Shown here piece by piece: positions 179 through 62,854 of a stretch of DNA of 62,854 nt. The notes under the pieces were generated by a model, which was not told where the DNA came from, did no database searches, and worked only from the letters and a program-made list of their open reading frames with translations. The stretch is taken from positions 1 to 62,854 of the IMG/VR virus record IMGVR_UViG_3300000062_000002. One strand, given 5' to 3'. Position 1 is the first letter of the stretch. Every line of letters begins with the position of its first letter. The DNA is from a virus. Made by a program: the position numbers and the translations under genes.

Positions 179-429
179 AAAGAACGAAAGGAAAGGACTT
201 AACAATGCCAGAATTTAAAATCACAGGAACAACAGAAGAGATTGCAGATGTAGTTATTGCACTTGATGTAAGCGAGGTTATAGGGATTGAAACTGCTCAC
301 AAGTGCGGAGGGAATTGTCACAATTGCACTTGCAATGACCACACCTACAGTGCTACGTTTTTGAATCTAACCAAAAATGAGCTTGCTGCACTGAAAAGCT
401 ATTACGATATAATTCGGGGGTTAAACTGA
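175..429 (+). CDS. Hypothetical small Cys/His-rich protein (HKCGGNCHNCTCNDH)
   Basis: 84-aa ORF. An alternative start at ATG 205 has a better RBS (AAGGAAAGGA, 7-nt spacer). Its stop overlaps the next ATG (429). Confidence 0.6.
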   Translation: MKRTKGKDLTMPEFKITGTTEEIADVVIALDVSEVIGIETAHKCGGNCHNCTCNDHTYSATFLNLTKNELAALKSYYDIIRGLN

Positions 430-2432
430 TGAAATTAATATCTTTAGCCCTACATCAATTCAAGGGTATAGAATCATTCTCGCTGAAAGTTGACGGTAAC
501 AATGCCACTGTATACGGTCAAAACGGCACAGGAAAGACAACACTTGCAGACGCATATCTTTGGTTGCTTACAGGCAAGAACAGCGCAGGAGAAACGCTAG
601 ACCCATTTACAGTAAATGAAAAAGGGGAACGCAAGCATCAAGGGCAAGAGCCGACTGTAGAAGCCGTGTTTATAGCAGAGGACGGCGAACAAATTACCTT
701 CAAACGCTCGCTTGTTGAAAAATGGGTAAAAAAGACCGGGCATACCGACCGCAACTATACAGGAGATGAAAGCAAGTTCTGGATTGATGGAGTGCCAAAC
801 AAATCAGGCGATTATAACAGCTACATAGAGCGCACATTTGCCACTGAATCAGTTTTGCGGTTACTGACAAATACAGGATATTTCAATACCCAAATCAAAA
901 AAGATGACCGCCGAAAGCTTTTGTTTGAGACTTTTGGCGATATGGCTGACAGTGAAATACTGGCAGATACCGAAGAACTGACAGACCTTGCCGCAGAAAT
1001 AGGCAAAAAAAACGTAGTCGATTACCAGAAGATGATTAAAGAGCAATACACAACGACTTGCAAACAGATTGAACTTATACCGGTTAGGATTGACGAGGCC
1101 GCCAAGAACATTACAGAGGGCATAGACAGTGACAAAGCGCAGGCTGACATATCAACACTTAATGCTGAAATCGCAAATTTGAGAGAAAAACTCACAGATA
1201 CTAGCGATAATGCGGTAATTAGCCTAAAACGAGAGTTGCTAACCCTCCAGAGGGAAATTGAAACAAAAAACACCGAACGGAAGCGGGAAATAGCCGATAA
1301 TGTGAGCGAGCATGAAAGGTCATTTCAATCTGAAATCCGAGACCTAAAAAACCGTGTTGATAGCCTTTTACACACTGCAAAAACCAATGATGCTCATATA
1401 ATGAGGAGCGAGAACAGAATCAAAGAGCTTAATACCGAAATCGCCAACAAACGTAAATCATGGAATGACAAAAAAAGCGAATGGAATGCAAAAAACGCTG
1501 AAACTTTTAATCCTGATAGCACAAATTGCCCAACCTGCGGTCAAACATTTCCGGCTGACAAAATTGCAGAAATGCAATCCAACTGGAACGAGCAAAAAGC
1601 TGCAAACCTTTCTGAAATCAGCGCATATATGGAGCAGATACAGGCATATGGCAAAACCTTAGCAGCTGAACTTGAAGAATGCAATACCGCACTTGCAGCA
1701 CTCAAAGAACAGCAAAACGGCACTCGTGCAGTCTATGAGGAAGCGGTAAGTAATCTTAATCAAGCGCAGGCAAACTACAAGTCATATATAGTTGACCCTG
1801 CCAAAGAAGAGATTCATACAGTCCTTATAAACAATTTGCAGATGCAGATAGCTAATATCGAATCAAAAATAAACACAGCTAATCAGGACACGCACCCCGA
1901 AAAAGATTCAATACTGCAAAAAATATCCGAGAGAGAAGCGCATATATCAGAATTACAGGCGGACATTGCAAAAGCCAACCTTTCGAAAGAATCACAAAAT
2001 CGTATAGATGAATACGAAGCTGAACAAAAAAGACTTGGTACTATCAGAGACCATGCAGAAAAAATGCTATATTTGTGCGACAGGTTTACCCGCATTAAAA
2101 GCGAAAAGATAACAGGCAACATTAACAAGCATTTCCAGATAGTTGAATTTTCACTCTTTGAGATTTTGAAAAACGGCGGCATGAAACAAGCTTGCGAAAC
2201 AACTATTGATGGTGTGGAATATTCGCAGCTGAACAAAGCAAGGCAAGTGGCCGGCAGTGTTGACATTATCAAAACATTTGCCAAAGCGCTTAATGTGTCA
2301 TTCCCTTTGTTTATAGATAATTCGGAATCAGTCTTGACCTTGTACGGAGTGGACACGCAGGACATACAAATCATTCGGCTTGCAGTTAGTGAGCATGATA
2401 AGGAATTGAGAGTGGAGAGGGAATTGATATGA
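429..2432 (+). CDS. SbcC/Rad50/RecN-like SMC-type ATPase with coiled coil and CxxC hook
   Basis: N-terminal Walker A GQNGTGKTT. A long heptad-rich middle contains CPTC (1527..1538). The C-terminus has a hydrophobic-Asp Walker-B-like motif (PLFIDNSES). Confidence 0.75.
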   Translation: MKLISLALHQFKGIESFSLKVDGNNATVYGQNGTGKTTLADAYLWLLTGKNSAGETLDPFTVNEKGERKHQGQEPTVEAVFIAEDGEQITFKRSLVEKWVKKTGHTDRNYTGDESKFWIDGVPNKSGDYNSYIERTFATESVLRLLTNTGYFNTQIKKDDRRKLLFETFGDMADSEILADTEELTDLAAEIGKKNVVDYQKMIKEQYTTTCKQIELIPVRIDEAAKNITEGIDSDKAQADISTLNAEIANLREKLTDTSDNAVISLKRELLTLQREIETKNTERKREIADNVSEHERSFQSEIRDLKNRVDSLLHTAKTNDAHIMRSENRIKELNTEIANKRKSWNDKKSEWNAKNAETFNPDSTNCPTCGQTFPADKIAEMQSNWNEQKAANLSEISAYMEQIQAYGKTLAAELEECNTALAALKEQQNGTRAVYEEAVSNLNQAQANYKSYIVDPAKEEIHTVLINNLQMQIANIESKINTANQDTHPEKDSILQKISEREAHISELQADIAKANLSKESQNRIDEYEAEQKRLGTIRDHAEKMLYLCDRFTRIKSEKITGNINKHFQIVEFSLFEILKNGGMKQACETTIDGVEYSQLNKARQVAGSVDIIKTFAKALNVSFPLFIDNSESVLTLYGVDTQDIQIIRLAVSEHDKELRVERELI

Positions 2433-3624: not shown

Positions 3625-4647
3625 ATGCCTGAAAAGCCAACAGTACCAGAAACAAACCAGTCACTTAAAACAACAAAAAAAGCAGAAATAGCACCGTCTG
3701 AACGCTTTGCAAAGCTAGTCATAAGAGAGTATGAGAGTATGGTAAGTGTAGGCTCACAGATGACCGAAACACAGCGGCGATTAGTGAAAAACTACTTTAT
3801 AGCCACTGACAGAGTATTACAGGGTGCAGAACAGCGGCGCTTAGCTAAGTCCGAAAATTACAGAGATGTTTTGCCTGTGACATGGCAAAACGTAGATATG
3901 ACCGCTTTTGCGTTGGACTGTGTACATTATTCCAGACTAGGACTTGACCCGCTCCAAAAGAATCATTTGCATATTATCCCATACAAAAACAACAAGACAA
4001 AAAAGTATGATATGACCTTGATGGAGGGTTACGAGGGCAAAGAATTAAAGGCAAAAAAATACGCTCTCGATATTCCGAAAGCGATTGACTGCGAACTTGT
4101 ATACAGCAATGACACTTTTACACTCCTTAAAAAAGGCGCAACAAACAAAGTAGAATCATACGAATTTGAAATCAATGACCCATTTGACCGTGGAAAAATA
4201 AAAGGCGGGTTTGGATATATCCAGTACGACCAGCCTGAAAAAAACCGTGTTATCGTTTTGTCTATGAAGGATATTTTGAAACGCAAAAACTCTGGTGCAG
4301 GTAATGTTGAGTTTTGGGGCGGTGAAAAGGACAAATGGGAAAACGGCAAAAAGACTGGCAAGGTTGCAGTCGAGGGATGGCAAGACGAAATGATGCTCAA
4401 GACCGTCAAGCGACATGTATTCGGTCAGATAGCCATTGACCCCTCAAAGATTGATGATACCTACAACTACACAGAAAAACGTGAGATTGAATATGCACAG
4501 GCTTTTGCACAGGATGAAATCGACCAGAAAGCAAACAATGGCGTAATGATTGATGCAGATTTTGCAGAGGTTGAGGACACCCGACAACTACCACAGGCTG
4601 ACGAAAATGGGGAAGTGGTTGAGGATTTGGAAAGCGCAGGTTTTTGA
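3625..4647 (+). CDS. recT: RecT-family single-strand annealing protein
   Basis: 340 aa. Core GFGYIQYD..VIVLSMKDILKRK..WQDEMMLKTVKRHVF is RecT-like and the C-terminal tail is acidic. GGAGGG RBS. Confidence 0.7.
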   Translation: MPEKPTVPETNQSLKTTKKAEIAPSERFAKLVIREYESMVSVGSQMTETQRRLVKNYFIATDRVLQGAEQRRLAKSENYRDVLPVTWQNVDMTAFALDCVHYSRLGLDPLQKNHLHIIPYKNNKTKKYDMTLMEGYEGKELKAKKYALDIPKAIDCELVYSNDTFTLLKKGATNKVESYEFEINDPFDRGKIKGGFGYIQYDQPEKNRVIVLSMKDILKRKNSGAGNVEFWGGEKDKWENGKKTGKVAVEGWQDEMMLKTVKRHVFGQIAIDPSKIDDTYNYTEKREIEYAQAFAQDEIDQKANNGVMIDADFAEVEDTRQLPQADENGEVVEDLESAGF

Positions 4648-14524: not shown

Positions 14525-14823
14525 TGCTAACACATTTATCTTTATTTTCGGGTGTTGGTGGCCAGTTGAATCCGGATTGGGTTGAGTGGTTAATGGGGTT
14601 CCCCACCGGATGGACAACCGCAGATATTGACATCATGCACCCATTACCACCAAAAGATGGCGAATGGTGGCCGAATGAGCCGGAAGGTGTTCCGAGGGTT
14701 ACCGCCAAAAAGCCTAATAGAGCAGATAGATTAAAGTGTTTAGGCAATGCGGTTGTTCCCCGCCAGTTTTACCCGATATTTAAGGCAATTGCAGATATTA
14801 CGGAGGATTTATATGACATATGA
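14524..14823 (+). pseudogene. Internally deleted DNA (cytosine-5) methyltransferase: motif I joined directly to the C-terminal region
   Basis: LSLFSGVGG (motif I, FxGxG) is followed at once by NPDWVEWLMGFPTGWT and LGNAVVP (motif X). No PCQ catalytic motif or target-recognition domain. Only 99 codons. Confidence 0.6.
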
Positions 14824-16213
14824 AGAATGCCTCGCAAGGAAGCGAATGGAAATAGTTGATAGCGGGTTCAGGGTAGAACAAAATGCCCTGAATCCGGCTC
14901 TCTTTGATTGGCAAAAAGACATTACCCGGTGGGCGCTCCGCAAAGGTAAAGCTGCACTGTTTGAGGATTGCGGATTAGGCAAAACAATCCAGCAGTTATC
15001 ATTTGCGGATGAAGTATGCAAGCATGAAAACACCAGTGTAATTGTATTTTCTCCACTGTCAGTAGCACAGCAGACGGTGGCAGAGGGGCGAAAGTTCGGA
15101 ATAAATGCAAACATAATCGAAAATCAGGCTGATATTAAAAAAGGAATCAATATCACTAATTATGAAAAGCTTGATAAATTTGATTTTTCTAGCTTTGGCG
15201 GTGTGGTTCTTGACGAAAGCAGCATCTTAAAGCACAGCACAAGCAAAACCCGGCAAGAGATAACGCAGCGCTTTGCCGCAACGCCGTATAAGCTGGCATG
15301 CAGTGCAACACCGGCACCCAATGACTTTATGGAGATTGGCAATCACTCTGAATTTTTCGGAATAATGAGCCAAGTAGAAATGCTTGCAACATTTTTTGCA
15401 CATGATGGCGGTGACACTGCCAAGTGGCGGCTAAAAGGTCATGCGGAGGATAAGTTCTGGGAATGGATAGCGAGCTGGGCTTGTGTACTGCAAAGTCCGG
15501 GTGACCTTGGATATGATGATGCCGCCTACAAATTGCCTCCGCTCAATATTCATGAGCATATCGTAAAATCAAATGCGCTTGAAGATACAGAGGGGCAACT
15601 GCTCTTAGTGCCGCAACAATCTATGAGTTTATCAGATCGCCGGAATGCAAGAAAGCAGAGCCTTACGCAGCGTGTGAGTGCCGCCGCAGATATAGCGAAT
15701 TCCATTGATGGACAAACGCTCATATGGTGTGACCTGAACTCCGAAAGTGAAGCTCTGAGTCGTGCTATTCGTGGAGCTGTAGAAGTTAAGGGCAGTGACA
15801 ACGCTAATCACAAAATCAATTCTATGATGGACTTTAGTAATGGTGATATTAAAGCACTTGTAAGTAAGCCATCAATAGCGGGATGGGGAATGAACTGGCA
15901 GAACTGTAATAATATGATTTTTGTTGGTTTGTCCGATAGTTTTGAGGCCTATTATCAAGCAGTTCGCCGCTGTTGGCGTTTCGGCCAGACAAACCCGGTT
16001 AATGTACATCTTGTTATATCCGAGGCCGAGGGCGCAGTTAAAGCCAACATAGAGCGCAAACAGGCCGATGCCATGCGTATGACAGGGGAACTTATAAGGC
16101 ATACTCAAAAAATATTAGAAGCAGACATTCGGCAAACTACACGTATAAGCGAAAATTATCATACAAATGCGGTTATGTTGGTGCCGGATTGGTTGAGGAG
16201 GAATGCGGGATGA
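14813..16213 (+). CDS. SNF2/DEAD-like superfamily-2 helicase
   Basis: DCGLGKT (motif I), VLDESS (DExx), C-terminal QAVRRCWRFGQ (motif VI). GGAGG RBS before ATG 14813. Confidence 0.85.
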   Translation: MTYEECLARKRMEIVDSGFRVEQNALNPALFDWQKDITRWALRKGKAALFEDCGLGKTIQQLSFADEVCKHENTSVIVFSPLSVAQQTVAEGRKFGINANIIENQADIKKGINITNYEKLDKFDFSSFGGVVLDESSILKHSTSKTRQEITQRFAATPYKLACSATPAPNDFMEIGNHSEFFGIMSQVEMLATFFAHDGGDTAKWRLKGHAEDKFWEWIASWACVLQSPGDLGYDDAAYKLPPLNIHEHIVKSNALEDTEGQLLLVPQQSMSLSDRRNARKQSLTQRVSAAADIANSIDGQTLIWCDLNSESEALSRAIRGAVEVKGSDNANHKINSMMDFSNGDIKALVSKPSIAGWGMNWQNCNNMIFVGLSDSFEAYYQAVRRCWRFGQTNPVNVHLVISEAEGAVKANIERKQADAMRMTGELIRHTQKILEADIRQTTRISENYHTNAVMLVPDWLRRNAG

Positions 16214-17118
16214 ATGAAAATATTGCAGTTAAAGACCAATATATAACAGATCGATTTGCTCTTTATAACGGTGACAGCGCAGAAGTGTTGCGTGAAATTC
16301 CGGATGATAGTATTCACTATATTATCTATTCGCCGCCATTCGCAAGCCTATATACATATTCAAACAGTGATCGGGATTTAGGAAATTGCCGCTCACATGA
16401 AGAGTTTTATCAGCAATTCAAGTTTATTGTTGATGAATCATATCGCACTTTAATGCCCGGTCGCATGATGTCTGTACACTGCATGAATTTGCCTACATCC
16501 AAAGAACGTGATGGATATATCGGTATTCGGGATTTTAGAGGGGATTTAATCAGGCTTTTTCAAGATAGCGGGTTTATATATCATTCCGAGGTATGTATAT
16601 GGAAAGATCCTGTTATAGCAATGCAACGCACTAAGGCGCTTGGCTTGCTCAACAAGCAAAAAAACAAAGATAGCTGTATGAGCCGTCAGGGAATACCGGA
16701 TTATCTTGTTACAATGCGCAAGCCGGGGATAAATCCTGAGCCGGTTAAACACACAAACGATGACTTCCCGATTGATACATGGCAAAAATATGCTTCTCCT
16801 GCATGGGAAGAATACCCATCGCCTATCTGGTGGGATATAAACCCATCCGATACACTGCAAGCGAGATCCGCAAGAGAAGAAAAGGATGAAAAGCATATAT
16901 GCCCATTACAATTACCTGTAATAAAGCGTGGCATTAACCTTTGGACAAATCCCGGCGATACTGTTCTATCCCCTTTTTCCGGCATAGGCTCTGAAATATA
17001 TCAGGCACTGGAAATGGGGCGCAAAGGTATCGGCATTGAGCTTAAAGAAAGCTATTACAAGCAGGGTGTACGCAATTGCATGGGCGTGATTGCCAATGAG
17101 CAGACAGTGATGTGGTGA
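16210..17118 (+). CDS. N6-adenine/N4-cytosine DNA methyltransferase (beta-class order: motif IV before motif I)
   Basis: IIYSPPFASLY (S/DPPF/Y) comes first, then VLSPFSGIGSE near the C-terminus. ATGA overlap with the helicase gene. Confidence 0.85.
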   Translation: MNENIAVKDQYITDRFALYNGDSAEVLREIPDDSIHYIIYSPPFASLYTYSNSDRDLGNCRSHEEFYQQFKFIVDESYRTLMPGRMMSVHCMNLPTSKERDGYIGIRDFRGDLIRLFQDSGFIYHSEVCIWKDPVIAMQRTKALGLLNKQKNKDSCMSRQGIPDYLVTMRKPGINPEPVKHTNDDFPIDTWQKYASPAWEEYPSPIWWDINPSDTLQARSAREEKDEKHICPLQLPVIKRGINLWTNPGDTVLSPFSGIGSEIYQALEMGRKGIGIELKESYYKQGVRNCMGVIANEQTVMW

Positions 17119-49153: not shown

Positions 49154-49462
49154 TTACATTAATATGTTTTGAATTTGAATCATGTCATACTCGGCCAAAT
49201 GCCCCATTTTTCTCACAAGGTCGTTATCTTTAAGAACGCAGATTTTTGAAGTTCTGATTGTTGTTTCTTTATCAAGTCCAACCCTTGCCCAATATTTCAA
49301 CGTATATTCAGCGTTATTTCTTGGATAATGAGTTGTCATCTTTAAAGATATAATAAATCCTTGTTTTTCTCCTACAATAAGCACAGGACGCTTTTTTATT
49401 ATGTCTGAATCCTCAAATTTGACCTTTGCAAACCAGACTTCCCATTTTTTACATCTAATCAT
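49154..49462 (-). CDS. PemK/MazF-fold toxin-like protein
   Basis: KKWEVWFAKVKF....KKRPVLIV..ISLKMTTHYPRN..GLDKETTIRTSKICVLKDNDLVRKMGHL fits the MazF/PemK pattern. ATG 49462 overlaps the PanA stop by 8 nt (the ORF track starts at 49489). Confidence 0.65.
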   Translation of the reverse strand: MIRCKKWEVWFAKVKFEDSDIIKKRPVLIVGEKQGFIISLKMTTHYPRNNAEYTLKYWARVGLDKETTIRTSKICVLKDNDLVRKMGHLAEYDMIQIQNILM

Positions 49463-50009
49463 ATTTATCCCAGTAGTCATCTTCTTCATCTTTTGGCAAT
49501 ACTAAATAACCATCAGCATCACGATAACCGACTGTCTCAATACTTTTTAATTCAAATATATCATCAAAAGATATTAGTTTCTCATGGTTTGAAAAATAAG
49601 AAGTTATATGGGTTTTGTCTATAATTTCACCTTTTACAGTTCTTTCCCATGGTGAGCCGATAACATGCGTTTTATTGACAAGATAAGCGGCCGTATATTT
49701 ACAATACTCCCGTGCAGAATCAAGCAGAATATTATATTCTTCATCCGTGAATAGGTGCGCTAACTCCTTGTCTATAGCAGATATATTGTTTCTTCCACAT
49801 ATCTTGTATTTTTGGTAAACAGCAGGAACAACGGGTCCGAGATCCCATGCTTCAATGTCATCATCAAAAAGAGGTTTCCCAGTCTTGGCGAGGTAATGAC
49901 CCTGTGCATAATAAAGCAGCTTGTTTAATTTCAAATTAGTTATTTCGCCTTCTTCATCTTGCCCGGCTAACTCTATAAAAAAATCAGCCACATCATAAAC
50001 ATTTGCCAT
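49455..50009 (-). CDS. Panacea (DUF4065, SocA-like) antitoxin-domain protein, paralog 1
   Basis: LKLNKLLYYAQGHYLAKTGKPLFDDDIEAWDLGPVVPAVYQKYK is the DUF4065 core. Confidence 0.8.
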   Translation of the reverse strand: MANVYDVADFFIELAGQDEEGEITNLKLNKLLYYAQGHYLAKTGKPLFDDDIEAWDLGPVVPAVYQKYKICGRNNISAIDKELAHLFTDEEYNILLDSAREYCKYTAAYLVNKTHVIGSPWERTVKGEIIDKTHITSYFSNHEKLISFDDIFELKSIETVGYRDADGYLVLPKDEEDDYWDKYD

Positions 50010-50429: not shown

Positions 50430-50630
50430 TCAATCTTTTACATACTCCATCAGGTCGCCGGGTTGGCAGTCAAGGATTTTGCATAACTGCATAATCGTAC
50501 TTACATTGACATTATCACCCCGCCAAAGTGCCGCTACAACCTTTGGATTGATACCATTTTGACGTAAGTAAAATTTATTGTATTTCTTTTCGGCCATTAA
50601 TGCATACAGTTTATTATATGAAACACTCAT
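50430..50630 (-). CDS. XRE/HTH_26-type DNA-binding protein
   Basis: YNKLYALMAEKKYNKFYLRQNGINPKVVAALWRGDNVNVSTIMQLCKILDCQPGDLMEY. Confidence 0.7.
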   Translation of the reverse strand: MSVSYNKLYALMAEKKYNKFYLRQNGINPKVVAALWRGDNVNVSTIMQLCKILDCQPGDLMEYVKD

Positions 50631-50738
50631 AACATCACCATCCGCAAATATAATAGCACACATTTGTTACTTTTGCAACGTTACTAAAGCATACGCTTTG
50701 CACAAATACCCATAGTTACTTTTGTATACATTACCATA

Positions 50739-50767
50739 TTGAAAACGCTGTTACTTTATGGTACAAT
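50739..50767 (+). promoter_or_regulatory. Promoter TTGAAA-17-TACAAT with a GTTACTTT repeat in the spacer
   Basis: GTTACT(T/A)3 occurs at 50666, 50680, 50715 and 50750. The last copy lies inside the 17-nt spacer. Confidence 0.55.
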
Positions 50768-50802
50768 ATAGACATAGAAAGAACAACAAAGGAGCTGACG
50801 AG

Positions 50803-50982
50803 ATGATAAAAATAGACTTATTTCGGTTGACGGTAAACAGGTGGTTGGGGGATATGCTATTTGTAACGGTTGAAATTATATGGAAAATAAAAAAGATTCT
50901 TAACGATGACAGCGCAAGAATTTACAAGAAACTTCAAGCCAGTTTTGAACCATACGCACGAGACGAAAACACACACCAATAA
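50803..50982 (+). CDS. Hypothetical 59-aa protein
   Basis: AAAGGAG RBS before ATG 50803 (the ORF track starts at 50758). Confidence 0.45.
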   Translation: MIKIDLFRLTVNRWLGDMLFVTVEIIWKIKKILNDDSARIYKKLQASFEPYARDENTHQ

Positions 50983-51014: not shown

Positions 51015-51224
51015 CTAAACCCTTGTGCCGTCTGGAAACTCAAAGGCGGAAACATAAACAGCACCAAGGATAGAGGCTATCCGCTCCAGCTCTTCACTAC
51101 TAAACTTATCTGTTTTCATTCGTTGGTTAAATGCCGATGGAGTTGTTCCAATGGAGCGAGCCAATTCCGACTCGCTCATGCGTTTATAAGCCAATGCCAT
51201 GCGTATTTTTTGAGACGTTTTCAT
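51015..51224 (-). CDS. XRE-family HTH repressor-like protein
   Basis: IRMALAYKRMSESELARSIGTTPSAFNQRMKTDKFSSEELERIASILG. Confidence 0.75.
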   Translation of the reverse strand: MKTSQKIRMALAYKRMSESELARSIGTTPSAFNQRMKTDKFSSEELERIASILGAVYVSAFEFPDGTRV

Positions 51225-51314
51225 TTTGTCACCCCCTGCGGTTAAGTATATCGGATAATCTAACCCATGTCAAGAAATATCTATAAAATAATTAGGAAAA
51301 CCGTTAGAAAACAC

Positions 51315-51343
51315 TTGACAACTATTAGGAAAACCTGTATAAT
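51315..51343 (+). promoter_or_regulatory. Consensus promoter TTGACA-17-TATAAT with ATTAGGAAAACC in the spacer
   Basis: The 12-mer ATTAGGAAAACC occurs at 51324..51335 (in the spacer) and at 51291..51302. Confidence 0.65.
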
Positions 51344-51378
51344 ATGGATGTGGAAAACAAAACAAAGGAGAATAGAAA

Positions 51379-54087
51379 ATGACATATTTTAACAATGTAA
51401 AATCTTATGAGGATTTAAAAAATCAATACAGAACCCTAGCACTTGCTAACCATCCCGACATGGGCGGCGATACCGAGACAATGCAAGCAATCAATAAAGA
51501 ATATGACGCTCTTTTCCCAGTCTGGAAGCACCGCAATGCAATAAATAATAATGAGACTGCAACAAGCACACGCAGCGAGTTCTACACACAATACGGTTGG
51601 AAAGGCTCGAATTACAACAGAAATATGAGCCTGAAAGAAATTGCTGTAGCCATTCGTGATTTTATCAAAATCCACTTTAACGACTGCAAATTCAGTGTAA
51701 CAACAAGCTACGCAAGCATGTGCCAAGAATTACACATTACGCTAATGGAAAGTCCACACAGAGCATATAAGTTTTTTGATGAATTAACTGAAGATGAAAA
51801 ACAAAAAATCCGCCAAGACTATACAAGAGAACACAACATAAACAACTATTTTGTTAATGAAATAAATGCAAAAATTGCCGAAATTTATAGCGAAAGATAT
51901 AGCAATAGCTATTATACCGAAGAAGTAAAAGCAATAGTACACGCCGTACAGGATTATGCAAACTCTTTTAATTATGATGATTCTGATGGAATGATAGACT
52001 ATTTCGATACAAACTTTTATTTTTTCGGCGTAACGCTTGGCAAATGGGATAAACCCTTTAAAGTCGTTGACCGCAAAAAAACAACCGTTGCTAATGTGGA
52101 ATACGAGACCGTAGAAGTCACCAAAACACGCACTAAAAAAGTTTTAGAGCCGAAAGCTATAGAAGCACCGGCAGAAATAAAAGAAGGTCAATACTTCCAG
52201 CTTTTGACCGGGTTTAATTATGGTTGCTATAAAGGCAGCGTTTACCAGATTACCCACATAAACGGCACTTTTGTAAATTCCTGCAAAATGGGCAAAGGCT
52301 ATAAAAATGTCACCGGCGGCACCGTCAGAGGCACAAGCTTCAACTGTGATATTGACCGCCTGAAAGCTTTTGTTGCAAAAGGTTCGATTGCCTTTGTTGA
52401 GTTGGTAGAGGTTACAAAAACAGAGGAATACACAAGCACAACACGCCGCCCCAAGAAATCAACAGGACTTTCAACAGAAGTAAAAGAGCCAAGCGACACA
52501 ACAGAAAGAACAGCCGAGACAGCAACAACAGAGCCAAGACCATACACAGTAACAGAGGACACAGACACCCGCGACAATAGCGCTCTTTGGGTTGTTAAAT
52601 TTTCCGACAGAATGAGCAAAGAAGAATACCAAGCAACAGCGGCAACAATAAAAGCCATAAAAGGCATATACAGCCGATTCAAAAAAGGCTTTATATTCCG
52701 CTATGACCCAACCGAAGAAATGAACTGCATATTTAACAATGTAAATTCTGATGGTTCCGCAAACACTGATGAAAATATGCAGTTAATAGCGGATTGCATA
52801 GAGGACGCAAGCACAGAAATTATTGAAAAGCTAAATTTACAGCCGGGCGAATTTGTGATAAATTTTGAGTACAAAGAGCATTTAACAGCATACATAAAGG
52901 AAAATAAAAAGCGCATTACTAAAAAAGTTATAGAAAAAATCGACATTGCAGAATTGCGTAAAGTGGTGGCGGGAATACTCGCCGCCATAGGTACCACAAC
53001 AATACAAAAACCGCCCAAAACAGACATTAAAACCAAAACACAAGAAAAGATAAGCAAGCAAATTGAAAGTCTTACAGCTAAAATCAAAGCACTATCTGGC
53101 GACTACAAAACAAATACATATAAGCGTATGCAGGAACAAGCAAGCAGAGAAAAAACAAAAGAGGGTTACAACTTCGAGGTTGATTTATTAATATATCTTT
53201 ACGGCATTTCAGAACAGCGAAAACTAACAATACTTGAACAAAATTTACTTGTTGATGCTTTTCGTGATAGGCTTCACGGTTATTATAACAGGCATAAAGA
53301 ATGGATGGAAACACCGCCCGAAAAGCGTTGCATTGCTTGGATGCCTATATCATACCCGAAAACAAGCTCAACAGCAGCAGAATGGTATAACAAAGATGTG
53401 CCAAAGCAACAAAAGCAATTAAACAAAGCAGAAATTTACAACACCAAACAATTAATAAAAGCGGTTGAAAAATACGGCGAAATTGTCAAAGAAGCTGTAA
53501 AACCAATTGACAGAACAGCACAAGAAATTAAGCGCAGAGAAAAAGAATGTAAATTACAGCAAAAAGGTGATGTACAATTTACACATTTGGAAGTAGCAAG
53601 GCAACTTGTAGAACTCGCTGGAATTGATGAAAATAGCAGAGTTTTAGAACCGTCTGCGGGTATTGGTAATATAGCAGATCAGATTAGGACAGTAACAAAA
53701 AACATTGATGTTATAGAGCAAATGAGCAATTTTAGAGAACTTTTACAACTCAAAGATTATAATCTTGTAGGCTATGACTTCTTAGAATATCAGCCAGAAA
53801 AAAGTTACACGCATATTTTAATGAATCCGCCATTCTCTAAAAATCAAGACATTCAGCACCTAAAACATGCTTATTCAATGCTTGAAAACGGCGGCACACT
53901 TGTTTGTATAATATCACCACATTGGAGTTTTGCCAATGATAAAGAATCAATAAATTTTAGGCTTTGGCTTGATGAGCAGGATTATTACACTGAGGATTTG
54001 CAAGCAAAAACCTTTGAAATGACAGGCGTAACAAGCAAAATAATAGTTATCAATAAAAGAGTAGAACAGCAAGAAAATATAGCATAG
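51379..54087 (+). CDS. Large multidomain ('polyvalent'-like) protein: N-terminal J-domain plus C-terminal N6-adenine-type SAM methyltransferase
   Basis: J-domain YEDLKNQYRTLALANHPDMGGDTETMQAINKEYDALF (HPD at 51451..51459). MTase motif I VLEPSAGIGNI (from 53641). Motif IV NPPF (53824..53835). Confidence 0.75.
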   Translation: MTYFNNVKSYEDLKNQYRTLALANHPDMGGDTETMQAINKEYDALFPVWKHRNAINNNETATSTRSEFYTQYGWKGSNYNRNMSLKEIAVAIRDFIKIHFNDCKFSVTTSYASMCQELHITLMESPHRAYKFFDELTEDEKQKIRQDYTREHNINNYFVNEINAKIAEIYSERYSNSYYTEEVKAIVHAVQDYANSFNYDDSDGMIDYFDTNFYFFGVTLGKWDKPFKVVDRKKTTVANVEYETVEVTKTRTKKVLEPKAIEAPAEIKEGQYFQLLTGFNYGCYKGSVYQITHINGTFVNSCKMGKGYKNVTGGTVRGTSFNCDIDRLKAFVAKGSIAFVELVEVTKTEEYTSTTRRPKKSTGLSTEVKEPSDTTERTAETATTEPRPYTVTEDTDTRDNSALWVVKFSDRMSKEEYQATAATIKAIKGIYSRFKKGFIFRYDPTEEMNCIFNNVNSDGSANTDENMQLIADCIEDASTEIIEKLNLQPGEFVINFEYKEHLTAYIKENKKRITKKVIEKIDIAELRKVVAGILAAIGTTTIQKPPKTDIKTKTQEKISKQIESLTAKIKALSGDYKTNTYKRMQEQASREKTKEGYNFEVDLLIYLYGISEQRKLTILEQNLLVDAFRDRLHGYYNRHKEWMETPPEKRCIAWMPISYPKTSSTAAEWYNKDVPKQQKQLNKAEIYNTKQLIKAVEKYGEIVKEAVKPIDRTAQEIKRREKECKLQQKGDVQFTHLEVARQLVELAGIDENSRVLEPSAGIGNIADQIRTVTKNIDVIEQMSNFRELLQLKDYNLVGYDFLEYQPEKSYTHILMNPPFSKNQDIQHLKHAYSMLENGGTLVCIISPHWSFANDKESINFRLWLDEQDYYTEDLQAKTFEMTGVTSKIIVINKRVEQQENIA

Positions 54088-54529: not shown

Positions 54530-54967
54530 ATGAATTATGATGCTTTGAACATAGCACAGTATATTATCGACTATTGCAATAAAAATAATCTGTCTGTAAA
54601 CAATTTGAAGCTGCAAACGCTCTTATATTTTGTTTGGATTCATTATTATAAACAAACGGGCAAAATACTTTTTGATGATAATTTTTCGGCAAGGCAGTTG
54701 GGGCCCGCTGTTTCAGAAGTGTATTATGAATACTGCCCTTGGGGTGGCATACATATTTTTCGAAGATATGAAGTGCCGCTTTTGCTTGAAGACAAAACCA
54801 CTATTGATGAATGCCTAGCTAAAGAGGCTCTATTCCCCTTATGTAGTCTCTCTGAAAAATCTCGCAAGCAGTGTGGTGCATGGAATACTATCTACAAGGA
54901 CGGCAGTGGCGACAGTCTTATAATTCCACAGAAAATTATTATTGACCTTGAATGCCGTACAGCATAA
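54530..54967 (+). CDS. Panacea (DUF4065, SocA-like) domain protein, paralog 2 (no obvious partner)
   Basis: LKLQTLLYFVWIHYYKQTGKILFDDNFSARQLGPAVSEVYYEY. Confidence 0.75.
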   Translation: MNYDALNIAQYIIDYCNKNNLSVNNLKLQTLLYFVWIHYYKQTGKILFDDNFSARQLGPAVSEVYYEYCPWGGIHIFRRYEVPLLLEDKTTIDECLAKEALFPLCSLSEKSRKQCGAWNTIYKDGSGDSLIIPQKIIIDLECRTA

Positions 54968-56203: not shown

Positions 56204-56650
56204 ATGTCGATACAAGCTTTAGTAAATTCTATATTGATACGGTCTTTTGAAGAAAAAGAACCGATTACCCCTATGAAATTACAAAAATTGGTTTATTTTG
56301 TTTACAGGGAATATTTGAGAGAAAGCGGAAAACCGCCATTTACAGAATTGTTCGAAACATGGAAGTACGGGCCCGTATTGCCTAGTGTATATGATGAATT
56401 CAATTCTTTTGGCTCGTCACCTATAACAAAGTTTGCACGTGATGCAAAAGGAACAGTTTTTACAATTGATGATAAAAAATCTCCAATTATGGCAAAATGT
56501 ATAAATAAAGTATGGGAAAAATATAAAAGATGCAGTGGTATAGAATTATCTAAATTAACACATTTAGATGGTTCTGCATGGTCTAACGCATTTGAAAAAG
56601 GTGCTAAAACTCTTGACATTGAGGATATATGCAATGAACAAATTAATTAA
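56204..56650 (+). CDS. Panacea (DUF4065, SocA-like) antitoxin-domain protein, paralog 3
   Basis: PMKLQKLVYFVYREYLRESGKPPFTELFETWKYGPVLPSVYDEF. Confidence 0.8.
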   Translation: MSIQALVNSILIRSFEEKEPITPMKLQKLVYFVYREYLRESGKPPFTELFETWKYGPVLPSVYDEFNSFGSSPITKFARDAKGTVFTIDDKKSPIMAKCINKVWEKYKRCSGIELSKLTHLDGSAWSNAFEKGAKTLDIEDICNEQIN

Positions 56651-58039: not shown

Positions 58040-58234
58040 ATGGAAAACAATCAATTCAATCAACCCCATGTGGTTAGAGATTCCTTATTTATCCATGTAA
58101 ATAGCATGGATAAGTTAAATGAATTGTTATCAGAAGCGAGAACACAAATGAACAAATTACAGAGAACCATAAATGAAATATCAGATTATAAAATTGAAAT
58201 AAAGTTCAATGATTCTAATTCTACTTCCGATTAA
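58040..58234 (+). CDS. Hypothetical 64-aa protein
   Basis: AAAGGAAAC RBS region before ATG 58040 (the ORF track starts at 57980). Confidence 0.4.
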   Translation: MENNQFNQPHVVRDSLFIHVNSMDKLNELLSEARTQMNKLQRTINEISDYKIEIKFNDSNSTSD

Positions 58235-58284
58235 TTTCTTGCTCGTACTTTTTAGTAGATAGAGCAGTGTCCACCCATTATTAA

Positions 58285-58764
58285 TTACATGTTTTTTTGT
58301 GAATCGGAATTTTTTGTAAGTTTTTGTTTAATTTCCATTATCGCATTTCTGTTTCTCATGACACCGCTTTCTATAAGCTTTAAATATCTCATTGCTTTTG
58401 AGTGTACAGATGATATTATTTTTTTGTCTTTTACTATGTAAGGAGTTCCGCTTATAACATAGGCCCCTATAATATAATCGCCTGTTACTGGAAACATGTC
58501 ACTTATCAAGAAAACTCTCTCTTTACCTGATATTATTCCAACATGGTAATATATACAATTCCCTGCTCCACGTTTCAATTCTTCACGCTTTATTTTTTCT
58601 TTATAATTTGCTGTTTGGGTGCTTAATGGTATCATCCATATAATTCCATCGGTATCAGCAATACAAAAATAATGTGGCCGGCCTGATTTGTTTTCCATCC
58701 AATGTTCAGACGGGAAATCTACAAAATATTTAGCATTAATTTTATACAAACCATTAACATTCAT
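58285..58764 (-). CDS. ToxN/AbiQ/CptN-like type III toxin (endoribonuclease) candidate
   Basis: LYKINAKYFVDFPSEHWMENKSGRPHYFCIADTDGIIWMIPLSTQ..CIYYHVG resembles type III toxin N-termini. AGGAGG RBS. Preceded by a repeat RNA and terminator. Confidence 0.6.
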   Translation of the reverse strand: MNVNGLYKINAKYFVDFPSEHWMENKSGRPHYFCIADTDGIIWMIPLSTQTANYKEKIKREELKRGAGNCIYYHVGIISGKERVFLISDMFPVTGDYIIGAYVISGTPYIVKDKKIISSVHSKAMRYLKLIESGVMRNRNAIMEIKQKLTKNSDSQKNM

Positions 58765-59134: not shown

Positions 59135-60274
59135 CTAACGGTTTCCCAAATATTCAATTTGAATAGCGGGTATGTACTGTTCATCTACGACTTTGTCACG
59201 AATTAAACCTTCACGTTTAGTTTGAAGCGTGGCTTGGCCTCTTCCGTACCCATATATTACAACAGTCTCGCCTTTCAGAAGTTTTGGCTCTTTTACAATT
59301 CGGTTGTCTTTGATAAGAACATCTTGCCCGTTAATTGTTCCCTGATAGTCACCTTGCCCAAAATTAAAAAATTTTTGCACTTCAACCTCTTTTATGTACA
59401 CAGTAACTTTTATTGGAATAGTCTTGTATTTTTCAGGATAACGCTGCAAGTCAAGATAGCTTGGCGATTCAGCTTGTTCGATGAATTTTTCATATGCCAA
59501 TTGAGCTTCTATTATTGCCTGTTCTGCTAACTCTTTTTCCTGCTCTGCTAGTGCCTCTTCCTTTTCTTGCCTAATTTCGGCATACTCTTCCATTTTTAAA
59601 ATGTCTCTGTCATTGGCTAACTCAACTCTTGCATTTTCAACATTTAATGTGCCAGCATATTTGCCAACAACAACTCCAGTAACTGTTATAATTTCACCCT
59701 TAGAAATTGTTCTGCTAAGTTCTTCAATCGAATCAATTTCAATCCTATCATAAGAATATTTTCCTAATTCATCATTTATAAGTATTTCACCATCAGACCC
59801 AATATCAGATACTTTCCCAGTGAACTTTACCCACTCGTTTTTGTATACGCTATCCGAGTAATAATCCCACATATCAACGTAATCAACTGACATAACATTT
59901 TTCGGGGTATATTCATTACTTGAAACATTAGAGCTTTCGGACTTGCTTGATGATTCGTTTTTACTCGATGAATCAGAGTCGGAACTTGGAGTGATAGTAT
60001 TAATAAATGCACAAAGTACAATAAAAATTACAATTGAAATCAAGCAGCCTTTTGCTTTACTTTTTTGAGGTTTTGAAGCGGACATATTTGCACTTGTTAC
60101 ACCTAAGTTACCTCTAATTGGTTCAGGCTTAACATGTTCAACGGGTTCGATTGTTGGCTTGGGTGCAGAAACTTCAATGACGGATTGCTTTTCCGTTGGA
60201 CACCCGCAATTTGGACAAGCTGCCGCCTTGTCGCTAAACTCTTTGCTACATTCAGAACATATTATTAAAGCCAT
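59135..60274 (-). CDS. Zinc-ribbon / single-TM / Ser-rich linker / extracytoplasmic-domain protein
   Basis: CSECSKEF..CPNCGC, TM CLISIVIFIVLCAFINTI, a Ser-rich linker, then a roughly 270-aa domain. Confidence 0.55.
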   Translation of the reverse strand: MALIICSECSKEFSDKAAACPNCGCPTEKQSVIEVSAPKPTIEPVEHVKPEPIRGNLGVTSANMSASKPQKSKAKGCLISIVIFIVLCAFINTITPSSDSDSSSKNESSSKSESSNVSSNEYTPKNVMSVDYVDMWDYYSDSVYKNEWVKFTGKVSDIGSDGEILINDELGKYSYDRIEIDSIEELSRTISKGEIITVTGVVVGKYAGTLNVENARVELANDRDILKMEEYAEIRQEKEEALAEQEKELAEQAIIEAQLAYEKFIEQAESPSYLDLQRYPEKYKTIPIKVTVYIKEVEVQKFFNFGQGDYQGTINGQDVLIKDNRIVKEPKLLKGETVVIYGYGRGQATLQTKREGLIRDKVVDEQYIPAIQIEYLGNR

Positions 60275-61589: not shown

Positions 61590-62054
61590 GTGTTGTTATC
61601 CCCTTAACCGCTAAAATGAGGTGCCTTGTAGAAAATGAAGAAACAAAAACAGCCAGTGGTGAATGCACTGACTGCTCATGCCTTTATTTGTTGTCCTGAA
61701 CCCTGTTGCAGTTTGCAATCCACCGGCAACGGACTGCTTGCATTTGCAAATGATTACCATAATTCACAGTTCTCTGGCGGCCAAAATGTCTATGCATTTT
61801 GCTTTTCTTACAAACGCAACCTCATTCACAGGTCACTTCTTGGCAAGGCGCTTCACTTTAGCGGTTAAAGGTTCCGCTGTACATTTGCCCGACGCATCCA
61901 CTTTAATCAAGACTGGGCAATTTCAAAAGTTTGGTCAATGAGACCAACTCCTCTCTTGCCACAATCGGCAAACACATTATACCGCAAAATATTGTGGCTT
62001 TCAAGGGAAAATCATTCAATAAGACACAAAACACAGCGTAAAGGAGAATTAACA

Positions 62055-62739: not shown

Positions 62740-62854
62740 ATGAACAAATGCGAAATTTCAAAAAAAACGGCAGGAAGAGAAACTGTAATAAATGTGATAA
62801 ACTACGCAATTTATCAGGGTGAAGATAATGACAACGGCAGGATAGGGGCAGATA
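62740..62854 (+). pseudogene. 5' part of the truncated replication-initiator duplicate (continues at 1..178). 62781..62854 duplicates 1..74.
   Basis: Identity to 11307..11421 apart from 3 mismatches. The terminal 74 bp are identical to the window start. Confidence 0.6.

Follow-up and report, generated by a model that had tools for sequence, protein, structure and literature searches.

A phage polyvalent protein gene that joins a J-domain and LPD29 to an N6-adenine-type methyltransferase

The virus record IMGVR_UViG_3300000062_000002, analyzed here over its whole length of 62,854 nucleotides (the window), raises the question of what a phage may gain from a single polypeptide that starts like a DnaJ-type co-chaperone and ends like an adenine methyltransferase. 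The gene concerned is an uninterrupted open reading frame (ORF) of 902 codons on the + strand at 51379..54087, with its ATG at 51379 and the stop codon at 54085-54087. An initial annotation, made from the letters alone, had described the product as a fusion of a J-domain with a methyltransferase and had pointed at its resemblance to the polyvalent proteins of phages and conjugative elements. This resemblance turns out to be actual membership: the protein contains an LPD29 domain that scores above the Pfam threshold, and its methyltransferase matches giant phage polyvalent proteins. It is a polyvalent protein as described by Iyer et al. (2017), in which a J-domain, LPD29, a methyltransferase and at least four further modules are combined in one phage polypeptide. 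We consider it rather probable, on the grounds of homology and context for each functional step, that it serves as an early-expressed counter-defence protein of a temperate phage.

Could two genes have been joined by a sequencing frameshift? In the independent European Nucleotide Archive (ENA) assembly L058, the gene is 99.2% identical and encodes the same product of 902 amino acids (aa), and full-length colinear homologues comprise 881, 818 and 781 aa with 60, 49 and 45% identity, respectively. The identical length in L058 and the colinear homologues rule out a frameshift artifact, and the ORF is indeed a single gene. The positions originally given for the diagnostic motifs are likewise exact on translation: HPD occupies residues 25-27 (51451-51459), VLEPSAGIGNI residues 755-765 (first base 53641) and NPPF residues 816-819 (53824-53835). 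No deposited phage or plasmid was matched by the gene in a megablast search, and the relatives present in public sources are labelled 'hypothetical protein' or are nameless.

At the N-terminus, residues 3-52 (51385..51534, + strand) form a minimal J-domain with helix II at residues 10-24, HPD at 25-27 and helix III at 32-52, as assigned by profile comparison and an AlphaFold2 (AF2) model. When a profile of 14 family N-termini was compared with the PDB, 69 sequences were retrieved at E<1, all but the weakest handful of them J-domains. The mitochondrial complex I J-protein (3e-7), DNAJA1 (8e-7) and SV40 large and small T antigen (2.5e-6) were the best matches, and Sis1, Tim14 and E. coli DnaJ were also among them. 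PF00226 is matched by all 14 family N-termini tested, with a best E of 3.5e-7. Across 198 relatives that share J-domain and LPD29, the J segment ranks among the two best-conserved portions of the combined module (H25 0.97, P26 0.96, D27 0.97, K14 0.96, M35 0.97 and N39 0.98; L20 is conserved likewise). An exact HPD is present in 189 of these 198 proteins, the exceptions reading RPD, HSD or HPE or being truncated. In the alignment with DNAJA1, K14, Y17 and R18 coincide with conserved residues of helix II (K, Y and R/K, respectively) and M35 with the conserved Phe of helix III, positions which we take to correspond to Y25, K26 and F47 of E. coli DnaJ.

The AF2 model of the N-terminal part (predicted local distance difference test score, pLDDT, 82.5) shows the helix at residues 10-24, the HPD loop and the helix at 32-52, with a pLDDT of 83-90 for the hairpin of helices II and III. 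Residues 1-9 are modelled as coil, no helix I is predicted, the loop leading from HPD to helix III is shortened and there is no distinct helix IV ahead of the conserved connector that follows. A Foldseek search with the 540-residue model gave weak matches to viral J-domain proteins (E about 0.05-0.07); against the PDB, the N-terminal half found no match at E<0.001. Taken by itself, the protein matches PF00226 at residues 9-45 with 21 bits for the whole chain and 24.1 bits for the isolated N-terminal 80 aa and thus misses the gathering score of 27.8, a limit set for database purposes that does not define J-domains biologically. Of the 63 profile positions, 13-53 are aligned, i.e. helices II and III only. 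The J-domain predicted at the outset is therefore borne out by homology at the profile level, by the 96-97% conservation of each HPD residue and by the predicted helix II-HPD-helix III hairpin, while the outcome of the profile searches is a divided one: the family profile and 14 of 14 members match, and the single-sequence Pfam score remains below threshold. We regard the J-domain as minimal yet very probably functional. The protein can be assigned to the class C J-domain proteins in a qualified way: this placement is supported by HPD and profile homology and is qualified by a Pfam score below threshold and the lack of a predicted helix I.

The J-domain continues into an aromatic/Gly-rich connector (residues 57-82; 51547..51624, + strand), apparent from the conserved columns ETAxSTRxxFYTxxGWxGSxY. 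Its invariant residues are E59, T60, A61, R65, Y69, G73, W74 and G76 (W74 0.97 and G76 0.99 in the 198 proteins); pLDDT is low at residues 70-73. Next comes LPD29 (PF18847), which is matched at residues 83-150 with 34 bits against a gathering score of 27 and forms part of a conserved module extending to about residue 230 (51625..52068, + strand). The module closes with an invariant acidic motif, S196..D201xD203GMxD207YF..F213, which AF2 places in a flexible loop of low confidence. In BFVD, the LPD29 fold is matched by phage proteins of ~160 aa (E 7e-8 and 3e-4). The helix plus acidic motif (DSDGMIDYFD; 51901-52023, residues ~175-215) also recurs as the extreme N-terminus, 'SDSMTDYFDP', of proteins devoid of a J-domain (P0020, P0100-P0120) that share the downstream modules. 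This recurring element may represent an independent short binding motif.

How firmly are the J-domain and its neighbours connected? An exhaustive HMMER search with residues 1-230 yielded 1617 representative clusters at E<=1e-3, of which 454 remain at <=1e-10 and 101 at <=1e-30. Many members of this J+LPD29 family have a size of 200-350 aa (median 337 aa). Among 257 proteins fetched for a census, 198 combine J-domain and LPD29, and only 15 of the latter carry the methyltransferase. The usual genomic form is a protein of ~335 aa made up of J-domain, LPD29 and a small module equivalent to residues 389-453; other cargoes are LPD26 or a combination of DUF6908 and MuF_C. A BLAST map of 120 homologues resolves six modules that are gained and lost independently. 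Sister proteins P0020-P0024 and P0027 possess the same chain of residues 240-902 including the methyltransferase and lack the J-domain; here, the helix plus 'SDSMTDYF' sub-module alone replaces J+LPD29. J-domain and LPD29 thus appear as a conserved functional pair to which the methyltransferase is added as an optional, interchangeable cargo. The fusion of a J-domain with a methyltransferase, originally singled out as the unusual link, is real, but the constant partner of the J-domain is LPD29 and the methyltransferase accompanies it in just those 15 of 198 cases. What makes the finding interesting is mainly the entire J+LPD29 family and less so this single methyltransferase fusion. Hosts of the J fusions include Lachnospiraceae, other Clostridia with a C. 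difficile strain among them, Bacteroidales and Treponema vincentii, and J-less LPD29 is found in Planctomycetes, Cytophagia, Thermoplasmatota and others. In the phage collection, the J+LPD29 module occurs in only four contigs, all unannotated and from human faeces.

These observations lead us to picture J-domain plus LPD29 as the head of a class C J-domain co-chaperone. Its HPD loop would dock on ATP-bound host DnaK and trigger ATP hydrolysis, upon which DnaK would clamp whatever the adjoining LPD29 holds. The target held by LPD29 would most likely be a protein or complex of the host, which would thereby be remodelled or disabled; as an alternative, DnaK could be directed to the polyvalent protein itself. 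A client that is bound by LPD29, and not the cargo, is favoured by the constant pairing of J-domain and LPD29, by the short proteins in which the pair stands alone and by the methyltransferase-bearing sisters without a J-domain. That LPD29 presents a host target to DnaK is a tentative proposal, which we hold to be much less probable than the counter-defence reading as a whole.

The alternative in which the protein chaperones itself deserves attention in this connection. The J-domain would then act in cis and recruit DnaK to its own long, linker-rich, multi-domain chain, which would thereby fold rapidly and remain soluble in the first minutes of infection, and no specific host target would be involved. 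The J-domain always opens the chain, HPD being found within residues 23-31 of nearly all relatives, and would leave the ribosome first; moreover, it heads proteins with many different cargoes, and disordered linkers are present in the protein studied here. Most members of the family are short, however, consisting of J-domain and LPD29 with or without one small domain, and would hardly need a recruiter of their own. The J-domain is tied to LPD29 and neither to size nor to cargo, and equally long sisters with the same chain and methyltransferase do without it. Self-chaperoning as the main purpose therefore strikes us as improbable.

Seen across the whole family, the proposal of an LPD29-bound client can be widened. 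J+LPD29 proteins may constitute a large, as yet undescribed phage family of Hsp70-redirecting adaptors, in which LPD29 seizes an immunity component of the host and the host's DnaK dismantles or traps it, or in which the module competes with DnaJ. In its main form, this would follow the logic of SV40 T antigen, which directs Hsc70 to Rb-E2F. In the alternative form, competition with host DnaJ would blind defences for which the DnaJ/DnaK network serves as a guard, such as bNACHT25 (PMC12169576). A methyltransferase, a MuF_C RNase-type domain or LPD26 would be added to provide a combined counter-defence tool for the first minutes. We judge this idea to be unlikely.

The C-terminal part (residues 690-896; 53446..54066, + strand) is a gamma-class (EcoKI/TaqI-like) N6-adenine methyltransferase according to Foldseek, motifs and PHROG. 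Its motifs are arranged in the order X (F734-T735-H736), I (residues 755-765, with VLEPSAGIG at 755-763 as the S-adenosylmethionine loop) and IV (NPPF, 816-819), which is the gamma-class order, and motifs X (F734-T735), I and IV are invariant or nearly so in 24 relatives. The AF2 model (pLDDT 86.6) matches StySJI HsdM (8e-9), M.TaqI (1e-7), M.BseCI, CamA and EcoKI M in Foldseek; for M.TaqI, the match comprises about 190-200 columns with 22-23% identity and a root-mean-square deviation of 3.4 A. PHROG families of DNA methyltransferases and polyvalent proteins are matched with E-values down to 1.6e-63, the C-terminus hitting the giant phage polyvalent families phrog_11358, phrog_15406 and phrog_9133. 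With 22.7 bits, the match to the Pfam MTS profile stays just below its gathering score of 23. The initial annotation was therefore right in naming an N6-adenine-type enzyme, the X-I-IV motif order and the folds resembling HsdM, M.TaqI, M.BseCI and CamA being in agreement. The same methyltransferase module is present in giant proteins termed 'internal virion', 'structural' or 'PLxRFG' in 231 phage records and at least 5000 plasmids.

Only 83 residues follow NPPF, all of them accounted for by Rossmann strands and helices, and so there is no target-recognition domain. An HsdS-like gene close to the 902-aa gene was not found in the PHROG/PADLOC annotation of the neighbours. Lack of a target-recognition domain is typical of the polyvalent-protein methyltransferase clade, and gamma-class membership stands. 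The methylases of polyvalent proteins have been described as EcoKI/TaqI-like enzymes with a TP-capped N-terminal helix that touches the active-site Asn, and an antirestriction role has been proposed for them (PMC5512222). By analogy to the DarB-type clade treated in the same work, the module would methylate the phage genome soon after entry or induction and thereby shield the DNA from host restriction. The enzyme is a candidate broad-specificity writer of N6-methyladenine (m6A).

Substrates other than phage DNA have to be weighed at this point. The methyltransferase could be a prophage-borne defence or epigenetic methylase of a restriction-modification (R-M) or MADS-like system, or else act on RNA or protein, for example on a DnaK client. 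PADLOC recognizes it only as mad2-like (MADS methylase, E 1.8e-14), sequence matches to KsgA/Erm and RsmC-like enzymes exist but are weak, some relatives pass the RrnaAD gathering score, and the Foldseek matches include class I protein methyltransferases, e.g. METTL21D. Against this, the EcoKI/TaqI DNA adenine family is indicated by the top folds, by NPPF and by the helix of motif X, and the module is characteristic of incoming mobile elements. Membership in a MADS or R-M system was rejected, as neither partner mad genes nor restriction genes reside nearby; the sole mad3 match, a weak one (1.3e-5) on the ORF at 429-2432, is outscored by LmuB models and better attributed to an LmuB-like SMC ATPase encoded 11 kb away in the recombination region. 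We consider such other substrates, or a defence role of the enzyme, very unlikely and return to methylation of phage DNA as the preferred reading.

Between LPD29 and the methyltransferase, the chain is built from further modules. Residues 240-360 (52096..52458, + strand) form a beta-rich module, modelled by AF2 with a pLDDT of ~90 as a long beta-hairpin stalk plus a small barrel, the presence of which varies independently among homologues. Foldseek returned non-significant matches only (Pif1 SH3, eL21, KOW and SH3, E>=0.02), and the module is tentatively described as SH3/KOW-like on the basis of the model. The Thr/Glu/Lys-rich composition noted earlier for the middle part is real and corresponds to a disordered linker at residues 361-384 (52459..52530, + strand; pLDDT <50). 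It is followed by a small alpha/beta module, delimited by alignment and AF2, at residues 389-453 (52543..52737, + strand; YTxTxDxDTRDNSxLWVVK...GFIFxYDP) that is highly mobile among relatives and makes up the usual third domain of the ~335-aa J+LPD29 proteins. Helical modules at residues 463-540 and 550-689 (52765..53445, + strand) were delimited by AF2 and the BLAST module map, and the second of these is inherited together with the methyltransferase. Pfam searches with four middle segments gave nothing credible, and profile comparison of both half-protein alignments with the PDB retrieved only J-domains and generic methyltransferases and nothing for the middle modules.

When would such a protein be made? 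The gene is preceded by a sigma-70-type promoter, TTGACA-17-TATAAT, at 51315..51343 (+ strand), which a consensus scan scores as 12/12, and by the ribosome-binding site AAAGGAG at 51364-51370, 8 nt before the ATG. Direct reading of the sequence reveals two copies of ATTAGGAAAACC in the same orientation (51291-51302 and 51324-51335, + strand) as a candidate operator, the second copy sitting within the promoter spacer. A divergently transcribed gene at 51015..51224 (- strand) encodes a 69-aa XRE/helix-turn-helix (HTH) regulator that matches PHROG transcriptional repressor families (E 1e-8 to 6e-4). It is faced by a promoter-like site, TTGACA-17-TATACT, at 51245..51273 (- strand; 11/12 in the consensus scan), and the region equivalent to the XRE gene in L058 holds HTH_3 genes. 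The XRE protein is a candidate repressor or Aca-like regulator of the early promoter, and promoter, ATTAGGAAAACC repeats and XRE gene would together form an operator-controlled switch. With regard to the tight regulation that had been postulated, the consensus promoter, the operator-like 12-mer repeat and the divergent XRE gene are present, while the tightness itself is read from these sequence motifs. The 902-aa gene opens a long rightward early operon that leads on to replication and recombination genes.

The same layout of a - strand XRE gene, a rightward promoter, a leader and a ribosome-binding site is found twice in tandem, at 50430-50794 and 51015-51370. The leaders of the two XRE cassettes are 76% alike (50761-50794 vs 51337-51370), and the first cassette drives only a 74-aa ORF at 50758-50982. 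A position as the first gene behind a divergent HTH gene is not a rule for the family: in a crude ORF and promoter scan of 27 relative loci, a promoter of at least 11/12 was found at only five of the 27, and many of the loci have co-directional upstream genes.

The location of the gene bears on the possibility that the protein is a virion-delivered effector, packaged and injected with the DNA. DnaK would then pull in or refold the chain, comparable to Tim14/Pam18 with mitochondrial Hsp70. Delivery of this kind is the general model for phage polyvalent proteins (PMC5512222), the homologous methyltransferase module occurs in 'internal virion'/'structural' proteins of Pseudomonas phages, one relative carries MuF_C and Tim14 is among the J-domain profile matches. 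The gene, however, resides in the early region, behind a consensus vegetative promoter and beside a regulator; the genes for packaging and the head are encoded on the other strand, at a distance of more than 3 kb. Neither a MuF N-terminal nor a portal-binding domain was detected with Pfam and PHROG. Annotated relatives are located in early or accessory regions of prophage-like elements and never in structural modules, and no portal, terminase or MuF gene lies beside the relative in six annotated contexts. Delivery with the DNA is doubtful since the gene is part of an early operon and not placed among virion or transfer genes, and we attach hardly any probability to it.

The surroundings of relatives provide further clues. 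P0056 is encoded at the end of a prophage, where a divergent HTH_26 gene precedes it and Tad3 and LPD11 are close by. The neighbours of P0070 include an LPD26 protein of 705 aa, three toxin-antitoxin pairs, NERD and a serine recombinase. P0015 on L056, which itself combines J-domain, LPD29 and methyltransferase, is encoded near Sequestin and the same pair of SNF2 and N6_N4 methyltransferase genes as present in our window. P0003 belongs to an SPbeta-like element with a YonO-type RNA polymerase, and P0013 is situated beside genes for DNA polymerase III beta and a ParM-like protein. Tad3, Sequestin, LPD11, LPD26 and the toxin-antitoxin systems in the neighbourhood of relatives count in favour of a counter-defence function.

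Several points weigh against the counter-defence function that we favour. Every functional step is inferred from homology and context, including the interaction with DnaK for the J+LPD29 family, and the single sequence of this protein misses the PF00226 gathering score and lacks a predicted helix I. LPD29 as a target-binding domain is a conjecture, and no solved relative was found either by sequence (profile vs PDB) or by fold (Foldseek vs PDB). The methyltransferase has neither a target-recognition domain nor a fused helicase that could account for recognition of DNA. Its motif X reads QFTHLE compared to NFTPSE in the family, Thr being kept and Pro replaced by His. Weak sequence matches to RNA and small-molecule methyltransferases (MJ0882, KsgA/Erm) exist, and NPPF/Y occurs in glutamine-N5 methyltransferases too. 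The leading position behind a promoter is not universal among relatives, and almost no neighbours are shared when 19 window neighbours are compared with 50 loci by tblastn.

How does the protein relate to known systems? With the polyvalent proteins of the 2017 survey it shares the multi-module phage chain, LPD29, shuffling modules, the EcoKI/TaqI-like methylase and conflict genes as neighbours and fusion partners. The main text of that survey, to which the following is limited, contains no mention of DnaJ, J-domain, Hsp70 or DnaK and ties LPD29 only to LPD30 (PMC5512222), whereas the LPD29 described here is J-headed in hundreds of clusters and the gene lies in an early operon. In the literature searched, which excluded the census of Barriot et al. 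(2020) and the supplements of the 2017 survey, we came across no account of polyvalent proteins that contain a J-domain; both Pfam families, PF00226 and PF18847, are already assigned to some database entries. LPD29 genes have been reported from aca4 operons, i.e. phage early regions beside small HTH regulators with a predicted anti-defence function (NAR 2026, PMC13551039). In our phage, too, the promoter is bordered by a small XRE gene and an operator-like repeat; the aca4-operon paper mentions neither a J-domain nor a methyltransferase.

The dyad of P1 DarB, in which LPD36 and an adenine methyltransferase are combined with an SF2/SNF2 helicase, resembles our protein in the gamma-class clade, the motif X helix, the lack of a target-recognition domain of its own and the presumed antirestriction purpose. 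A dyad of the DarB type is not present, as Pfam and PHROG reveal neither a helicase nor LPD36 and the chain ends 83 residues after NPPF. Furthermore, DarB is a virion protein, while the 902-aa protein is apparently made early, and the SNF2 helicase of our phage, unlike that of DarB, is encoded by a separate gene paired with a different, beta-class methyltransferase (14747-17118). The closest functional analogy is provided by the large T antigen of SV40 and other polyomaviruses, likewise a viral protein in which an N-terminal J-domain is fused to DNA-directed machinery. T antigen uses host Hsp70 to remodel Rb-E2F, as cited in a passage of PMC10410713. It stems from a eukaryotic virus and has an origin-binding domain and a helicase as partners, so that the likeness is one of working logic and extends to family only via the J-domain.

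Phage J-domain proteins are known from Rki, the first to be characterized (PMC3486835), and from sporadic DnaJ proteins of jumbo phages (PMC7824862). Rki (gp057w of the T4-like phage RB43) is also a phage class C J-domain protein with an N-terminal HPD, a poorly conserved helix IV and a C-terminus of unknown fold. It differs in its size of 237 aa, its origin from a lytic E. coli phage, its action on sigma-32 stability and the absence of LPD29 or any enzyme domain, and we saw no sequence relationship to Rki beyond the J-domain. Should J+LPD29 function similarly, it would redirect or titrate Hsp70 in stress regulons, replication complexes or proteolysis and not in defence, and the methyltransferase would be a passenger. 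The sole experimentally characterized phage J-domain protein acts in this manner (PMC3486835), DnaK/DnaJ remodel phage and plasmid replication complexes (reviewed in PMC8215388), and the gene heads an operon running into replication genes, with relatives near genes for DNA polymerase III beta and G39P-like loaders. The fusion partners, though, are typical conflict effectors (methyltransferase, MuF_C RNase-type domain, LPD26), and Tad3, Sequestin and toxin-antitoxin genes are among the neighbours. Heat-shock control in Firmicutes is exerted mainly by HrcA/GroEL and CtsR rather than by DnaK and sigma-32. We give such a diversion of Hsp70 little probability and adhere to a role in counter-defence.

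If the J-domain works, temperate phages of the dominant gut anaerobes would routinely bring their own Hsp70 co-chaperone as the head of counter-defence proteins. This would join chaperone targeting with phage-host conflict, a connection so far represented by isolated cases such as RB43 Rki, lambda P/DnaK and DnaJ-dependent sensing by bNACHT25. The stand-alone J+LPD29 proteins are compact (about 230-340 aa), which makes the question of what LPD29 binds a tractable one, and a methyltransferase detached from a DarB-type helicase is relevant both to antirestriction and as a tool enzyme. Were the J-domain inert, the protein would be an ordinary, though well-resolved, member of the polyvalent proteins.

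The genome that harbours the gene is complete. A direct repeat of 74 bp is present at both window ends (1-74 and 62781-62854), and in the independent contig L058 the sequence of the window end runs straight on into that of the window start; the window hence represents a complete circular (or circularly permuted) phage genome of ~62.78 kb. It is that of a temperate, siphovirus-like phage, with gut Clostridia as the most likely host group. The structural genes occupy the - strand between 22 and 48 kb and include those for both terminase subunits (small and large), the portal, the major head protein and a tape measure protein of 1379 aa. Replication and recombination are served by + strand genes between 0.4 and 22 kb, among them those for an SMC/LmuB-like ATPase, RecT, a DnaB-like helicase, a large serine recombinase, an SNF2 helicase and a beta-class N6/N4 methyltransferase. 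In the lysogeny/early region at 48-61 kb, two small divergent XRE genes, an Ant anti-repressor, an ERCC4 nuclease, a MazF-like toxin gene overlapping a Panacea-domain gene and two more Panacea paralogues are found.

Some of these genes merit separate mention. The gene for the SNF2-family helicase overlaps that for the beta-class N6_N4 DNA methyltransferase at 14747-17118 (+); with the latter enzyme, two unrelated adenine or cytosine-N4 methyltransferases are present in one phage. The SMC-like ATPase encoded at 429-2432 (+) is the first large gene of the replication/recombination stretch and has its best PADLOC matches with LmuB of Lamassu (E 4e-18). It is adjoined by the RecT gene (3625-4647 (+)) and is probably a recombination and not a defence gene. 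The three SocA/Panacea paralogues (phrog_1281, PF13274) are located at 49154-50009 (-), 54530-54967 (+) and 56204-56650 (+). The first overlaps a gene for a MazF/PemK-like toxin (49154-49489), an arrangement suggestive of a toxin-antitoxin pair of the PanA type. Its two paralogues, situated on either side of the Ant gene, come without a toxin and could be decoy antitoxins against host toxins.

Compared to L058, a contig that is elsewhere 99-100% identical, the window contains an additional segment of ~560 bp at 58084-58643 that looks like a variable moron-like insertion and overlaps the ORF at 58285-58764 (-), a member of phrog_33519. A 379-aa ORF at 59135-60274 (-) is conserved in L058 and without match in Pfam or PADLOC; among its PHROG matches, all of them weak, is a superinfection-exclusion (Sie-like) family (E 2.7e-4). 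Finally, the Rfam model of the FuFi-1 RNA (RF02986) is matched over its full length, with 100 bits (gathering score 59.6), at 61644-61896 (-) among small ORFs of the early region.

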